From: Elusimicrobiota bacterium
Lineage (GTDB): Bacteria > Elusimicrobiota > Elusimicrobia > UBA1565
DNA length: 64,000 nt
NCBI GenBank assembly: GCA_043827405.1
Contig: JBDRPD010000054.1
Location: 1 to 64,000, forward strand
Reading direction: 5' to 3'
Each line of letters starts with the position of its first letter. Within the stretch, counting starts at the first letter, position 1. Made by a program: the position numbers. Shown here in pieces: positions 33,001 to 42,000 of the stretch.

Positions 33001-36000
33001 GGAGGGGGACATCGAGCCCTTCGCCGTGTGGGGCGAGGCGGCGCTTTTCGATCATCCCGGCAGCCCGAAGTTCTCGGGTGTCGGCGGTGCGGACTATAAG
33101 CTGGCCGAGAATACCACGCTCGGCCTCGGCTACCTATACCAGGCTTTCGGCGCGCGTCGGGCATCCGAGCTGGCCGCTGTCGCGCTGGACGCGCCCTACC
33201 GCGAGGGCTGGGCATTCCTGGGCGGGCGTCAATACGCGGTGCTGGCGGCGCATGCTGAGCCGCATCCTCTGATTCATATCAACCTGTCGGGAATAGTCAG
33301 CCTGACCGATGGCTCTACCTTGTGGCAGCCGCGCCTGACTTGGAATGCCGCCGACGAGGCGGACGTCAGTTTCTACGGCTGGATCGCGACCGGGCGGGCG
33401 CCGGAGGGACTGATCCTGCGCTCCGAGTTCGGCTCCATGGCCGACGGCGCCGGTATGTACTGCCGGGTGTTTTTCTAGGCCGACAAAAAGCCGCCCGTTC
33501 CGGGAACGGGCGGCTTATTGATATCGTCTAAGGCGAATGCTTACTCGACGCTGGCGGTCAGCAGGGCCTTGATCTCCGCTCCTTCGTATGTGACCTTCTC
33601 CGTTTCGCGGTAGTCCTGCCACTTGTCGTTGGAGATTTGCCCCACCCGCTTGAAGCGCCACTTGACGTAGTACTCCTTGCCGGGCTTGAGGTCGCCGCTC
33701 AGTTCCTGCGCGTAATCCGCGAAGTTGACGCGGTGGACTTCGGCCGCCGGGATCGTGATCTCCGTTTTCAGCGCCGTCGAGTCGAACCAGTTCTTGTAGT
33801 AGCGTACGAGCCGGACCTCAACGGTCACTTTCTCGCCCTCATAGAACTCGATCCAGCGGTCTTTCAGCTGCAGCGAGAAGCTCCCGGTTTCCTGGTCGAA
33901 GCCGAAGGCGGCCTGAATCCCGTTCGGATCGGGGTTGGCGCGGTTCTTGCTGAGCGCGCGCGCGAGCACTGTGTCGCCGTTCCAGCCGGGAACGTCGAGC
34001 GAGTACTTGTGCGAGGCGTCGACCACGTGGGCGCTGAGCCATTGGCCCTGGAGACAGACCTGGAATATGTCGCGCTCCCAGGGGAGCATCTCGCCGCGTC
34101 CCGATACCTCGATGCGGGCCTGGCGGCGCTCGGTGCTGACCCAGCGCTCATGGCACTCGCGGCTCTTCGCGTTATAGCTGTGGTTCGGGCGGCGGTCGCC
34201 TATGCGGTCGCCTTTGCGCGGGTGCGGGCGGGGGTGCCGGGGTGCGTCCGGGATGTTGTAGCAGATCTCCTCGTAGATGCGGCTTTCCAGGCTGATGCGC
34301 TCCGAGGTCATCGGATCGCCCGGGCGGAAGGAGACGGTGGCGCAGTCACGCTCTTCGCGGCGGAAAAGCGGCCGTGCCTCGAACTTGCTATTGACGCCGG
34401 CGGCCTTAACTTCCTTCTTCGCTTCTTTGACTAGCCCCGAAACGTCGACCCCTTGGTCGAAATTGAGGTTATGCTCCAGCGCATCGGCGGCCGGCGCGCC
34501 GAGCATCGCTGCGGCGAGTATCATGCCTATTAGTTTCATGTCTGCTATCCCCCTGGGTTTTCCGCAGCGGACTAAAGGTCCTAGTTGCGGCTGGGTCCTG
34601 CGGCCCTATTGTAACGGCACTCATGGGGCAAGACATAGAAGCGATAGGCCCACCCCGATATGGGATAAAGGACCCATAATCCTGCCTCTCGCTTTCGGCG
34701 GGACAATGAATCTGTAACACGGCTGCCCCATAATAATCGTGAGGACACCATGAATGCGATGCTAGCTGGATTTGTAACCTACGGAGCGTCCGAACCCTTG
34801 GGGCTGCCGGATGAGTATGGTCTCTGCTGCGTTATCGCGGGGACCATCATCATTACCATCGCGGCCCGCCTGCTGCCGAAAACGGCAAGGGTAGAGGATG
34901 TCGCCCGGGTCGCGGCGCAGAAATAGCCGACAGCCCCGTCCTAACAGAACTCCTTAAGGAATTCCTTAAGGAGGTTAACTGGCGGGTCGAGGTCGAGGAA
35001 GCGCGCCGCCGTCGATTCGTAGCCTAATTTCCCTCCGCTTTTTTCGTGCATCCCCACGTAAAAGTCGTAGCGCTCCTTGTTGGTCCGGCTGTCGAGTTCG
35101 GGGTGGAACTGGGTGCAGTAGGCCGGACCGCCGCCGATGCGGAAAGCCTGGTGCTCTACGAGCTCGCTCTCCGCCAGGCGGACGGCGTTCCCCGGCGCGC
35201 GCGCGACGCGGTCGACGTGGCCGAGATGGGCATGGAAGGAGGGGGGCAGTTTGCCGAACAGCGGGTCCTGTGCCCCCTCCGGCGTCAGGCGAATCTCGAA
35301 TGTGCCGACCTCGCGGCAGGCCCGATCCTCGACCACTTCGCCGCCAAGTGCGGCGGCTACGATATGAAAGCCCATGCAGGAGCCGAAAAAAGGCACCTGC
35401 CGGTTGAGGACCTCCAGTACAAAATCCTGTGTTTTCCGGTGGTGGGCAAAGGGCTTGGTCGCCATGGAATAGTCCCCGGCTCCTCCGACCATGACGGCGT
35501 CAAAGTCCCGCCAGGCGCCTGGCGCGGGTGCGGCGAGAACCGCATTATGGGCGATGATCCGCTCCGGGGCAACACCGCACATCTTGGCGAAGCAGTCGTG
35601 CTCATGGCCGGCCATCGGGTCATCGGCATTGCGGATTTGCAGGAGAAGAATATGGGGAGCCATGGCCGATGTATACTTCTATTTCCGCTGCCGGGGCAAT
35701 AGAGGGCATTCATCTTCCTGGGCCCTCCGGGCATGTATTTAACATCGCGCGCGCGGCGCGTCCTTGGGTGCCGAATCGCGCGGAAAAAATATCGGCCCAG
35801 CAGGCCTATGGGCGATAGATGTTTTCTCGTCGAGGCGGTGGCTGCGCGCGCGGGCCCTAGTCGCGCCATGTGGGCCCAAGGGCCCAGGTAGTATACTGGG
35901 CCCAAGGGCCCAGCGGGCTGGGCCCTACGCTTCTTGTGGGTTTTCTGGAGCGGAGTATAATCATAGCGTACCCTGTAATCCTTAAAATTGGTTAAGGAGT

Positions 36001-39000: not shown

Positions 39001-42000
39001 CGGCCATCACCGTCGCGGTGACCGGGCTGGGCGTGCTCGGGCTCTTCGGCACCGTCCGCGAACTTATCGGCATGTTTCGCCGGGGGCGCCTGTGAGCCTG
39101 AAAACGGTTCTATTTTTTCTGTTCGCGGTCCGCTTCGGCTTGAGCAGCGCCGCGCAGGCCGCGGTGCCGAACTCGCTGCACCACGGGCTCGCGGCCAAGG
39201 AAGTCCTGAGCATCGAGGCGCTCGCTCCGGCCGGCACGGCCGAGGGGATGTACCATTCGGGCTTTAAGGCGCAGCAGATCATGCAGGGCCTGCAGACCGG
39301 CGACCGGCCGGCGGTCCGTGCCGAGAGGGCGGCTGAGAGCGAGCAGGGCGTCCCTCCGGCGGAGATCGCCCAGAAGGTCAAGGGTTTGAAAACCGGCGAC
39401 GTCCCGCTGCCGGGGCGGGCCGACGGCAAGCCGCCGGCGGAGAAGGGCAAGCTGGACAAGGTCCTCAAGTTCGTGCAGAAGTGGCTGCCCATCGCCATGC
39501 TGGTCTACGGCTCGGTCAATATGATCATCAATCCGATCGGTGCCGCCTCCGGCGCGCTGCGGATGGCGGCGGTGATCGCCGCCGTCGGCACCGCCATGCT
39601 GCTCTATAAAACGATAAAGAAGAAGGGGTAGTCGGGATGGGAAATCGCGATCTGCATGTACATCTGGCGATCTGGGCCGTCGCGCTGGCGTTCTTGACGC
39701 GGCTGGCCGCCGCCGAGACGCCGAGCTTCGACCAGGGCGTGGACGCCGCCGCCGTTATTGAACAAGCGAAGCTCGAGGTCCGGTCGGGACACCGCCGCGG
39801 CGCTCCGGGGCTGGGCTACGGGCGCCCGGTCAGCACCGGCTGGGAGACCGACTGCCGCGTCATTTCCTTCCGTCCTCAGGACGCGCTGGTCGTGGATAAT
39901 ATCCTGCTCGAAAGCGTTCGTTATGAGGAAGTCTGCCGCCGCGGTCCTGACGGCCGTCGGCGTTGCCGCCGGGAGCGGACCGGCAGCGAGCGCCGCCGGG
40001 TGCGCTTTGAGATCAGCGGCCGCGGCGCGATGCTGCCGTGGGAGAAGGATATCTTCCGCGTCTGCCTCGACGGCTACCACTTATGGGCGCGGACGATCGA
40101 GGCCTCTTACGCCTACGAGATGCGGGCCGGCTGGGAGAATAAGGTCGTCGCGGTGGCGGGCGGCAAAGTTCCCACTGAGCCGGATCCCGACGGGCTCTAT
40201 CCGGGCGGCTTCCAGCTTGATCTGGAGAAGGAGAATTTCGAACTCTTCCTCAAAGATCGCTGGGCCCAGCACTATACCGGCGACGAGGTCGTGCTGCGGC
40301 TGGAGCTCAAGGAGCATGTCCCGCTGTGGATTGATCAGACCGTCATTAAGAAGAGTATCGCGCTGCCCGCAGCCGATATGTACACGATCCGCTTCGCGGA
40401 TTTCGCGGCCGAATTCGCGCGCGAGCTCCAACCGGGCAGGCAGTATTACGTGAAATGGGGCTTCCAGCGCATGGGCCACGTATCCCGGCCGACCTGGCAG
40501 GGGGACTGGAAGACGGCGAGGGTCAAGCATGCGCGCAAGCCCGCGCAGGAATCGGGGGCGCTTAGCTCCGGCTTCTTTCGCCGCTAGATTTACCCAACCA
40601 CCACCACCTAACAAGCGCACCCCTTTATGGGGTGCGCTTTGTTTTTAACGACCCGGTCTTTGGTCCTATAAATGAACGGGCCATATTTTTCCGTTTAGCG
40701 TGCTTTTTGGCCCAACCGCTTCCGCGGTATTCCGGCTAAGCTGAAGGTATGAGACGCCTAATAGCTTCCACGCTCGCCGCCGCCGTAATTCTCGCCGCCC
40801 CGGGGCCGGCCGCCCATGCGGTCGTCGCCAAGGCCGTTGTTTCGGCTAACGCCGTATCCGGGGTGGGACAGGTCGGAGCCGGGGGTGCGGCGGTTGGGCT
40901 TAATGGCAAGGCCGGTCTTGATCTGACGCAAATCGGGACGTCATTTTCCTTAAAGAGTACCTTGCCCACCGCCTCGTTCAAGGGGCTGAACGTTCTAAAG
41001 ACCGCTGAGGGGGGGATTTCGGCCGTCAAGTCCGTCGGCATCGTGGCGCATGATTCTGTAGAGACTTCGGTTTCCCCCAGCGCTTCCGTATCCGTTGTCG
41101 CTCCCAAGCAGGATGCTGCCAAGAAGACCGCCATGGGCCGCCTTTCGGCCGCCGTCTCCGGCATACCGCACCTCCTGGGGCTCAAGGGTTCTTCACTCAA
41201 GGCCGCGTCCGGACAAACTTTCGATAATGCCGGCCGGCATTCCGGGACGGCCGTCGCCGCGTCCGCCGACAGTATCGGGCATGCCCGCTCGGGGCTTAAA
41301 GCCGCCGGCAAGTCTAATGTCGCCGCGGATGTTCCCGGCGTGGAAGATGTCGCCGGACGGGCGGAGACGCCCGCCCCGAAGCAGAAGGTTTGGCGCGCCA
41401 TCCGCATCGGGGCGCTGACGGCCATTATTATGCTCGCTGCGGACACCATTATCATGGGGGTCGCCACGCATTTCGGCTACGTCTTCCATCCGAGCTACGA
41501 GATGCCGGCGCTGACCGATCCCGCGGCCTTCGCTGCCCTGGGAGATACGGCGGCGATGATTCTGTCCAAGGTGCAGGAAGTTTTCATGGGGGCGTTCGTC
41601 GCACCGTTTAACGAAGAGGTATATTTCCGCGCCGGCGTCATGGGGCTGGCCGCCCTCGGCGCCACGAGGACGCTCAACGGAGCCGTCAAACTGCTGACCA
41701 AGATCAAACCGAGCCTCGCCAAGCTCCGGGCGTGGATCACTCCGGCGGCGTTCGGCATCGCCGCTACCGAAGCGGCGCTGTTTTTCGCCTTCCTGCATGA
41801 GATGTCGGATCCGATCCTTATCACCATTCGCATTATCCAGGCACTGCTGATGTCTTATCTGTACGTGCGCGAGGGTTTGGTCTCAGGCATGGTGCACCAC
41901 GGGGTGTTCAACGGCCTGGCGATCCTGACGCTGCCCTTTATCTACGCCACAGTCGGCGGGACGACGACGATCTTGACCGGCCCGGCGCTGCTGATCGGAG

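Follow-up and report, generated by a model that had tools for sequence, protein, structure and literature searches.

The window analysed here, a stretch of 64,000 nucleotides of contig JBDRPD010000054.1 of an Elusimicrobiota bacterium, was found to contain a 2'-dG-II riboswitch aptamer followed by an operon of four genes headed by a subtilase (Table 1). The aptamer matched RF03165 over model positions 1-71 with 70.6 bits (cut 60, E 4.3e-16) and was the sole gathering-score match in a cmscan of the whole window. With the residues placed by hand in the env1 numbering (PMC6847200), every published pocket residue of the class was found to be present: the first-shell nucleotides U22, C51 and C78, the junction-proximal P1 pair G21-C79, and the two-nucleotide J3/1 insertion (U75 and a G at 36026) followed by A77. 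A G nucleotide at position 76 costs env1 just 2.9-fold (PMC6847200). The GG and CC nucleotides of the L2-L3 kissing contact were present and presumably pair, and P3 was one pair shorter than in the covariance model. The element is a genuine 2'-dG-II aptamer, an ordinary member of a rare, already described class. A 237-aa minus-strand ORF across it (35357-36070) was taken as a shadow frame. As given in the preliminary description, a second full-score aptamer was found in the same genome at C13:42036-42107 (64.4 bits), and the start codons lie 67 nt (window) and 39 nt (C13) downstream of the aptamers, opening ORFs of 785 and 667 aa.

Table 1. Features of the riboswitch locus and its operon in the window.
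Feature	Position	Strand	Details
Candidate operator, tandem GGNCC-N3-GGNCC repeats (x2)	35872-35885 and 35898-35911	.	Sequence
-10 hexamer TATAAT	35956-35961	+	Perfect; sequence
2'-dG-II aptamer	35968-36036	+	RF03165; P1 35971-75/36029-33
Aptamer residues		+	G21=35975, U22=35976, A24=35978, G46=35999, A48=36001, C50=36003, C51=36004, A52=36005, U75=36025, A77=36027, C78=36028, C79=36029
Presumed loop-loop contact	GG 35990-91 / CC 36013-14	+
Intrinsic terminator	36025-36076	+	16-bp stem 36025-36040/36054-36069, 4-bp inner helix, 7 U (36070-36076)
Shine-Dalgarno-like GGAGG	36088-36092	+	10 nt before ATG; sequence
Subtilase, 785 aa	36103-38460	+	PF00082, E 9.8e-43
211-aa ORF	38460-39095	+	Overlaps subtilase stop codon; no family
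179-aa ORF	39092-39631	+	Signal-like N-terminus; no family
Predicted exported protein, 316 aa	39637-40587	+	No family
Terminator-like hairpin	40613-40639	+	11 bp; closes four-gene operon

The -10 hexamer was not paired with a consensus -35 hexamer, and a two-hexamer sigma-70 promoter scan returned 0 sites. Judged from the position of the -10 hexamer, the transcript likely starts near the first aptamer base. The GGNCC repeats further upstream are a candidate operator for a transcription factor, a function suggested by their sequence and by motif counts, since the motif was found within 120 nt upstream of 43/156 aptamer loci against 46/1283 genes of the host genome with an upstream gap of at least 80 nt. 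The genome-wide tie of the motif to exported genes was weak (strict: 24/46 against 486/1237, p 0.09; loose: p 0.011), and a secretome-wide GGNCC operator is therefore not claimed.

The 5' leader, which ends at the ATG at 36103, was found to contain an expression platform that cannot form together with the aptamer. The 5' arm of the terminator is J3/1 together with the P1 3' strand of the aptamer; the terminator therefore excludes the ligand-bound aptamer, which is the arrangement of an ON switch. The terminator fold was computed at -53.0 kcal/mol against -36.7 kcal/mol with P1 enforced, and the overlap of terminator and P1 was supported by staged folding as well. These in silico structures are mutually exclusive and support a riboswitch built as an ON switch, a direction it would also take in vivo. 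The same terminator-overlapping-P1 design was found at the C13 locus. Across the canonical loci, which were scored for ON designs only, ON logic was found at 96/134, by terminator overlap at 70 and by a pairing of at least 7 nt between the ribosome-binding region and the pocket at 26 more; the remaining loci were unclassified (34/134) or contained terminators without a scored overlap (4). Terminator overlap occurred in 44/670 trials with shuffled downstream DNA and in 125/399 cases when downstream segments were swapped between loci. The loci are related, so that locus counts overstate their independence.

In the subtilase, the S8 domain (390-686) was found to contain an intact D399/H429/S636 triad and the oxyanion N532. 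Its N-terminus is signal-peptide-like by inspection and hydropathy, with likely cleavage after A46; export beyond the periplasm, as for the secreted subtilisin proposed before, is presumed. Three close full-length relatives were found, and orthologues at 60% were present in the genomes G001 and G002. A family-wide paralogue of the subtilase was without an aptamer at 7/7 loci inspected. The subtilase and the next gene do lie behind the aptamer as first described, and the operon was found to contain four genes, not two. The 211-aa ORF contained a signal-like N-terminus and hydrophobic segments at the C-terminus, the 179-aa ORF has a 42% homologue that comes after the subtilase orthologue in G001, and the 316-aa protein belongs to a multi-copy lineage family with an FDQG motif after the signal peptide, a 33% homologue opening the riboswitch-headed operon of G001. 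Pfam and NCBIfam gave no family for these three genes (the repeat search covered two). The link between riboswitch and subtilase operon recurs in another genus.

The 667-aa product of the C13 locus had been taken for an exoprotein of no known family, a description that was not retained; it is probably a membrane zinc protease and not a soluble exoprotein, as judged from conserved residues and a structural model. The protein was found to contain HExxH and a distal Asp as the presumed third zinc ligand, and H225, E226, H229 and D373 were kept in 81/83 of the alignment rows covering all four. The distal motif, GHD(W/F), differs from the canonical M50 distal motif. Nine close members gave no above-threshold match to PF02163 or PF13398, and sub-threshold M50/M50B matches (E 0.001-0.05) were found in 7/29 distant homologues. 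With an AF2 core model (pLDDT 97), Foldseek against the PDB gave nothing at E<=0.001, and sequence searches of solved structures gave nothing significant. In VIA, the core aligned to SpoIVFB with Z 6.2 (rmsd 4.2, 121 aligned) and to RseP with Z 6.1 (4.5, 141) and 5.7 (4.3, 132), scores with which generic helical bundles tie; the only structural matches spanning the HExxH-Asp core were M50 enzymes. Atlas structure rows were mostly M50, with TM 0.41-0.48 by query, below the Atlas naming bar. The protein is probably best classed as M50-like, not as a member of M50.

The phylum of the host has indirect support. In its genome, contig C4 ends within a third copy that has the canonical core, and two further copies, on C50 (52 bits) and C32 (42.3 bits), score below the cut and differ in the core. 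As reported earlier, 10/16 other genomes of the family contained matches at E<=0.001, 7 of them over the cut, with 9, 10 and 9 matches in G001, G002 and G013, respectively; 0/14 control genomes were over the RF03165 cut. The matches were partly the core variant (6/9 in G001 and 6/10 in G002), which corrects the earlier figure of up to 10 copies per genome: with the variant set aside, no genome has more than 9 (G013, of which 7 exceed the cut). Sub-cut matches in family f15 were ruled out as 2'-dG-II by their A21/U51-type cores. A pattern scan of GTDB gave 121 matches, of which 111 well-paired ones were kept; the 10 without P2 pairing were discarded as chance, and 7 of these, run through Rfam, gave no match. 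The hosts of the 111 aptamers were Elusimicrobiota (96), Balneolaceae (9), a family with cultured members, and unnamed (6). The native host is therefore not the single family UBA1565, as had been proposed, since the class spans several Elusimicrobiota families and Balneolaceae; it was absent from the two largest families sampled (0/46 and 0/44). By eye, and with identities that could be off by one, the crystallised env1 RNA was closest to the Balneolaceae copies and three other tested env RNAs were Elusimicrobiota-like. Twelve metagenomic members without a confident host (PMC5473149) and a Bacteroidetes host (PMC8872408) had been stated for the class; new here are at least 111 genome-linked copies, mostly of Elusimicrobiota, with host and regulon context.

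Among 132 first genes behind the aptamers, 42-44 were nuclease-type. These included 30/132 stand-alone ComEC-type MBL proteins, in which the metal motifs were intact in 20/20 full-length ones, followed by 7 Balneolaceae endonuclease I or EEP proteins (with 2 short ones added by eye), 4 HNH-motif proteins and one NucT-like PLD. Proteases made up 9/132. By a crude heuristic, hydrophobic N-termini were found in 94/132 first genes against 1392/3463 genes of the host genome, and in 32/55 at family level. Pfam and NCBIfam gave nothing for most target families, and some first ORFs were mis-called. Receiver or sigma-54 regulators, GTP cyclohydrolase II, MatE and radical SAM proteins fit no feeding model. 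All four published associations, namely receiver domain, PLD, ComEC and endonuclease I (PMC8872408), were recovered; a passage of the same source dates the DNA-acting targets ComEC and endonuclease I to 2017, and the ComEC C-terminal domain is described in a passage of PMC8579336 as a shown nuclease. The two ON mechanisms are an addition to the described class, as are the protease and HNH nuclease targets. Both complete canonical aptamers of the host genome front proteases, not nucleases, and the idea of a DNA cue is therefore better backed by the wider gene set than by these two.

In free-living Elusimicrobiota and marine Balneolaceae, the switch mostly fronts exported nucleases, proteases and exported unknowns, a pattern that suggests a 'food is here' signal and not purine housekeeping. 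With a probability of roughly two in three, a scavenging secretome is turned on by guanine nucleosides that are set free as DNA is digested and are then imported. Of the extracellular cue proposed at first, the true aptamer, the ON design and the exported degradative targets stand; the riboswitch senses the cytoplasmic pool, and such a cue therefore requires import, for which a NupC-type transporter exists in the host genome and may provide the route. The -10 promoter, which probably depends on an activator bound to the GGNCC repeats, would let transcription begin at the aptamer. With no ligand bound, the aptamer 3' strand would join the 16-bp terminator and transcription would end at about 36076. 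High cytoplasmic 2'-deoxyguanosine, the presumed ligand in this organism, would lock the three-way junction so that the terminator cannot close, allowing read-through into the exported-protein operon; by analogy with Table 1 of PMC6847200, guanosine is possibly a co-ligand. The result would be a positive feedback on feeding, in which foreign DNA is digested to deoxynucleosides, these are imported and salvaged (dNK, PNP), and their level calls up more digestive proteins.

A tentative and on balance doubtful extension is that free-living Elusimicrobiota are unrecognised predators or lysers, in which deoxyguanosine from prey DNA signals that feeding has begun. The digestive secretome would then need two inputs, the GGNCC activator and a purine-scaffold riboswitch, the latter as the 2'-dG-II form and as a core-variant form with another ligand. 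This extension is drawn from 17 strong PilB/GspE/PilT-type ATPase matches in the host genome, the protease- and nuclease-rich targets and the absence from the two largest families. The evidence fits predation and dead-cell scavenging alike.

The same ON switch might instead read the cell's own guanine-nucleoside pool (guanosine or 2'-dG), as fed by turnover of RNA and DNA when the cell starves or is stressed, and so call up scavenging enzymes before food arrives. The sensor is cytoplasmic, the targets in the host genome are proteases, some members barely separate 2'-dG from guanosine (2.6- to 180-fold selectivity across the class), and guanosine is the more abundant of the two in E. coli (PMC6847200). 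The tested Elusimicrobiota-type RNAs, however, favour 2'-dG 15- to 180-fold, env6 and env23, of that type by eye, binding it at 88 and 290 nM with 35- and 180-fold selectivity (PMC6847200), and in two unrelated phyla nuclease-type proteins are the commonest targets, which makes an internal signal rather unlikely. A competence regulon, in which 2'-dG from the strand degraded during DNA uptake raises the uptake machinery for transformation, would suit the ComEC-type nuclease domain as the commonest target, the presence of membrane ComEC in 17/17 family genomes, the many pilus ATPases, and a host membrane ComEC without an intact MBL motif beside a stand-alone, predicted exported MBL protein. It is improbable, as 0/93 scanned first-gene proteins were membrane ComEC, pilin, ComEA or DprA, the stand-alone MBL gene of the host genome (C35) has no aptamer, and proteases, endonuclease I and HNH proteins destroy DNA rather than import it intact. 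A guanosine-derived signal such as cGMP or a modified nucleoside, giving a second-messenger regulon like those of cyclic-dinucleotide riboswitches, was given a similarly small chance. It would suit the presence of up to nine copies in one genome, the range of non-metabolic targets with receiver domains among them, the co-occurring core variant and the 10 class III cyclase domains in the host genome. The base specificity of such cyclases is read by the Lys/Glu rule, and Glu was found at the base-specifying position in 0/10. With no cyclase of guanylate signature and no supporting literature passage, cGMP was rejected as ligand; moreover, the 3'- and the 5'-hydroxyl of the sugar are both buried in the env1 structure (PDB 6P2H), and nanomolar 2'-dG binding was measured for env RNAs (PMC6847200).

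Ordinary purine or dNTP feedback, as for 2'-dG-I before ribonucleotide reductase, is the textbook role of the riboswitch family (a passage of PMC9971707) and one target is GTP cyclohydrolase II, but this reading is already largely refuted, in line with the preliminary description: the host genome encodes NupC, dNK, PNPs, RNR and PurD, no homologue of six of its purine or nucleoside genes was found in 252 kb downstream of 135 loci, and its genome-wide profile scan placed no aptamer near any of them. That the window element has lost its switching, as a hitch-hiking relic or a constitutive terminator, is just as hard to credit. The 16 kcal/mol advantage of the terminator over the P1-enforced fold and the short P3 would suit it, but a dominant terminator is usual in kinetically controlled ON switches, as established for the pbuE adenine switch, the pocket residues and helices are all intact, and the association with the subtilase operon persists in a second genus.

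The class was reportedly first described by Weinberg et al. in 2017. In the literature since 2017-2019, short of the 2017 original, structure and binding constants were described without a confident host, switching logic or role. More than 100 genome-linked copies now give hosts, including Balneolaceae, where regulation could be tested directly, and a consistent ON design and an exported nuclease and protease target set are linked to the class. If the feeding-cue reading is true, the riboswitch offers a way to learn how a phylum with hardly any cultured members lives, and the genes behind it supply a set of candidate digestive proteins, which mostly belong to no known family; if the predator reading is true, the riboswitch regulon answers to a prey cue and not to a metabolite.

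Compared with known systems, the subtilase shares the D/H/S triad and oxyanion Asn of family S8 (PF00082) and differs by a lineage-specific pro-region of ~340 aa. The C13 protein resembles the site-2 protease clan M50 (SpoIVFB, RseP) in its HExxH, in the conserved Gly helix after it and in the distal invariant Asp, but differs in the lack of a Pfam M50 match at threshold, in Z scores of only 5.7-6.2, and in an extra signal-like N-terminus and a hydrophobic C-terminal tail. The window aptamer shares with published 2'-dG-II (RF03165) the fold, the G21-C79 pair, the U22/C51/C78 pocket and the two-nucleotide J3/1 insertion. The 2'-dG-I riboswitch of Mesoplasma florum has the same ligand and three-way-junction scaffold, whereas it lacks the J3/1 insertion, has A-U as its junction pair and C-G at 22/52, and sits before ribonucleotide reductase (PMC6847200, PMC8872408). 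The 2'-dG-III riboswitch (Bacillus, nucleoside hydrolase) is likewise a predicted terminator-based ON switch for guanine nucleosides, whereas it contains another J2/3 and no insertion, and controls intracellular nucleoside breakdown, not exported hydrolases (PMC9295807).

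The window was found to contain a single Rfam element, a 2'-dG-II aptamer (RF03165) covering the whole model at 70.6 bits. The U22, C51 and C78 nucleotides, the G21-C79 pair and the U-led two-nucleotide J3/1 insertion, which a passage of PMC6847200 gives as class-defining, were all found in this aptamer, followed by the presence of the A48 nucleotide, reported in that passage to increase the affinity of env1. Judged by its sequence, the element is a genuine copy of the already known class, and binding of the ligand by this copy is predicted.

A TATAAT box without a consensus -35 lies just upstream, so the transcript likely starts at the first base of the aptamer. 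The 5' arm of the terminator was found to consist of J3/1 and the 3' strand of P1, and the terminator and the ligand-bound aptamer are therefore mutually exclusive. Folding gave -53.0 kcal/mol with the terminator versus -36.7 kcal/mol with P1 enforced, and in staged folding the aptamer stayed folded until the terminator 3' arm appeared. In silico, the element is an ON design. An overlapping, shorter terminator was also found at the second copy, on contig C13. Ahead of the -10 box, GGNCC-N3-GGNCC repeats were present, as they also were in front of numerous aptamers and exported genes (43/156 aptamer upstream regions versus 46/1283 first genes of the source genome, G000); they are a candidate activator site.

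The aptamer was found to be followed by four abutting ORFs, all with hydrophobic N-termini, of which the first encodes a subtilase with an intact catalytic triad. The preliminary description had placed a subtilisin gene plus one more under the riboswitch; the subtilase stands, and the operon holds four ORFs, not two. In G001, a genome of another genus in the family, a 71-bit aptamer leads an operon in which three of the four window genes have homologues in a different order (316-aa gene 33%, subtilase 59%, 179-aa gene 42%). The family-wide paralogous subtilase had no aptamer at any of seven fetched loci (flank at most 1.5 kb), nor had the subtilase orthologue of G002, whose contig stops just upstream. 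The riboswitch region lies between two paralogues (37%) belonging to an unnamed, multi-copy family of exported proteins marked by an FDQG motif, of which more copies were found on C54, C76, C83 and C13. Directly past the operon terminator comes the gene for a membrane protein of 684 aa that contains an Rce1-like (CAAX protease) domain.

The protein behind the C13 aptamer, earlier described as an unknown exoprotein and without a Pfam name, reads instead as a probable M50-like membrane zinc protease. It has 8 close relatives and a core family of 115 representatives, and H225, E226, H229 and D373 (HExxH/Asp) were conserved in 81/83 rows covering all four positions. Sub-threshold M50/M50B matches were found in 7/29 distant homologues. 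With the core model (pLDDT 97), Foldseek gave no significant match; in a wide structural search only SpoIVFB (Z 6.2) and two RseP structures (Z 6.1 and 5.7), level with generic bundles, matched across the whole HExxH-to-Asp core, and the Atlas structure rows were mostly M50. The pairing of aptamer and C13-type gene was also found in G001 and G002. With the subtilase and this probable protease, both complete canonical switches of G000 front proteases. A weak N-terminal module common to the two (subtilase residues 134-219, C13 protein about 29-151) was observed, the window subtilase ranking top among 3463 G000 proteins with a C13-family N-terminus profile (E 4.3e-4); it is possibly a sorting signal.

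Two over-cut aptamers in the genome were confirmed (the second at 64.4 bits), with no over-cut copy in 14 control genomes, and the family survey was reproduced, with matches in 10/16 other genomes and over the cut in 7. Two further G000 copies below the cut have a different junction core, and a profile built from the matches of this analysis recovered a third canonical-core copy, truncated at the C4 contig end, its target gene unassembled. The claim of up to 10 purine-type copies per genome held for totals (9 in G001, 10 in G002), of which 6/9 and 6/10 were the core variant; the non-variant maximum was 9. Fifteen core-variant purine-scaffold RNAs were seen, also in G001, G002 and G016, differing in J2/3 and J3/1 and alike in ON terminators in 14/15; their targets were mostly signal-bearing, subtilases among them, and their ligand is probably another one. 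In family f15, purine-scaffold RNAs (L194-L201) scored 44-50 bits on RF03165; their cores are of the A21/U51 type, their J3/1 is lengthened, and some are followed by a thioredoxin-like small ORF, by eye.

Locations of features at the window locus and elsewhere in G000
Feature	Location	Strand	Remark
GGNCC-N3-GGNCC repeats	window 35872-35911
-10 box TATAAT	window 35956-35961		no consensus -35
2'-dG-II aptamer	window 35968-36036
Terminator stem	window 36025-36040 / 36054-36069		then seven U
Operon	window 36103-40587
Closing hairpin	window 40613-40639
FDQG-family paralogue	window 33541-34539	-
FDQG-family paralogue	window 39637-40587	+
Rce1-like membrane protein	window 40749-42803	+
Second aptamer	C13:42036-42107
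Third aptamer (L189)	C4:15641-15691
Core-variant RNA	C50:195786-195857	-
Core-variant RNA	C32:47202-47272	-
Small HNH homologue	C22 about 28250-28660		without riboswitch
Membrane ComEC	C108:25162-27000	-	degenerate MBL stub at end
ComEC-type MBL	C35:19621-20688	-	signal-bearing, motifs intact

The host range was wider than the family UBA1565, which had been named as the native host. In a phylum sample of 151 genomes, matches were found in 14 and over the cut in 8, the carriers being families f1, f3 and f5 (6/7 in f5). The two largest families, presumably gut symbionts, were without an aptamer (0/46 and 0/44; listed f4 genomes 1.2-1.7 Mb), and pattern matches L084 and L131 were in records with gut-symbiont names. 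A GTDB exact-pattern scan, its pattern drawn from Elusimicrobiota matches and missing the window's own copy (similar patterns recover 21/31 known copies), gave at least 121 loci. Among the matches listed, 111/121 contained at least 6 of 7 P2 pairs, and the well-paired loci were, by record titles, at least 96 Elusimicrobiota, at least 9 Balneolaceae and at least 6 'bacterium'. Rfam, run on 20 of the 121 listed loci, placed 6/13 well-paired loci over the 2dG-II cut and 1 as Purine, and matched 0/7 poorly paired loci; only 1/7 Balneolaceae loci passed, so the filter used here is looser than Rfam's. Compared by eye, env6, env23 and env30 differed from the Elusimicrobiota types L070, L208 and L170 at 1/57, 5/57 and 7/57 positions, and env1 differed at 6/59 from L130 and L159, both of them Balneolaceae copies. 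The crystallised env1 is thus probably from outside Elusimicrobiota, and three of the four tested RNAs are probably from within it.

At least 135 canonical loci remained after removal of 7 duplicates, 132 with a first ORF (the longest starting within 260 nt, some mis-called). All first ORFs were clustered; Pfam was run on 93 of 147 canonical and variant ones, and NCBIfam on 22 proteins. Among the loci listed, nuclease-type first genes made up 42-44/132: ComEC-type MBL proteins that stand alone and begin with a signal-like N-terminus (30, metal motifs in 20/20 full-length), Balneolaceae endonuclease I or EEP-PKD-LTD proteins (7, and 2 short ones by eye), HNH-motif proteins (4) and a NucT-like PLD (1). 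Proteases comprised 3 subtilases, 3 M50-like, 2 papain-like and 1 trypsin-like, followed by 3 receiver or sigma-54 regulators and single genes for a phosphatase, an alpha/beta hydrolase, radical SAM, GTP cyclohydrolase II, MatE, solute-binding and Ntox16 proteins; the remaining families were mostly without a name. Hydrophobic N-termini were found in 94/132 first genes versus 40% of G000 genes (32/55 by family), on a crude score with a one-genome background and related, non-independent loci. ON logic was found at 96/134 loci, only ON designs being scored: 70 by terminator overlap (controls: shuffle 44/670, swap 125/399) and 26 by base pairing between the ribosome-binding region and the pocket; the rest were 4 terminators without scored overlap and 34 unclassified loci. 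The HNH-motif proteins (L081, L083, L109, L111) are small, signal-bearing and without a Pfam family, and are riboswitch-fronted in four genomes. Canonical aptamers L202, L203 and L209 precede signal-bearing ORFs of 65-71 aa, possibly peptide precursors, and the C108 and C35 genes may represent a split ComEC.

Positive feedback on feeding, with a probability of about 0.65, would be the simplest account of the switch and its target set. Digested DNA would release deoxyguanosine, which would enter the cell, build up and turn on the exported hydrolases. NupC, dNK, two PNPs, RNR and PurD are all present in G000, so deoxynucleoside import and salvage are possible and, by PurD, the organism is no purine auxotroph. 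Against the feeding reading, the ComEC-type MBL gene of G000 is aptamer-free, selectivity over guanosine varies within the class, and several target genes are out of keeping with it. An internal nucleoside pool as the signal is an unlikely second account. Competence and another guanosine-derived messenger are both improbable; with regard to the messenger, 10 class III nucleotide cyclase domains were found in G000. Purine feedback, given that homologues of the six G000 genes named above were absent from the 252 kb downstream of canonical loci, and a relic, given the residues kept in the window aptamer, are both highly improbable.

The boldest reading would take the ligand as a prey cue in unrecognised predators, from the pilus/secretion ATPase matches (17 strong PilB/GspE/PilT-type) and the target set. 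For one lineage-IV genome, obtained from an amoeba culture in which cyanobacteria served as the feed, the published interpretation is an aerobic heterotroph with auxotrophies for amino acids (PMC9476967); this agrees just as well with scavenging. In the excerpts of a preprint on giant genes and of a secretome study, Elusimicrobiota were not termed predators, and those of the latter describe small-genome members with few secreted proteins.

In literature on the class, on Elusimicrobiota, Gracilimonas and Balneola riboswitches and on the ComEC/cGMP context, mostly titles and abstract openings, neither an Elusimicrobiota placement nor an ON secretome regulon was found; the 2017 discovery paper may state host or direction. 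The class was described in part of PMC5473149 as 12 members, metagenomic only and not assignable to a division; sister classes are covered in sections of PMC9295807 and PMC12282948, and in a passage of PMC9971707 the 2'-dG riboswitches figure as rare elements that regulate nucleotide metabolism. Beside these known systems, the value of the present finding lies in the host range, the ON logic and the target set.
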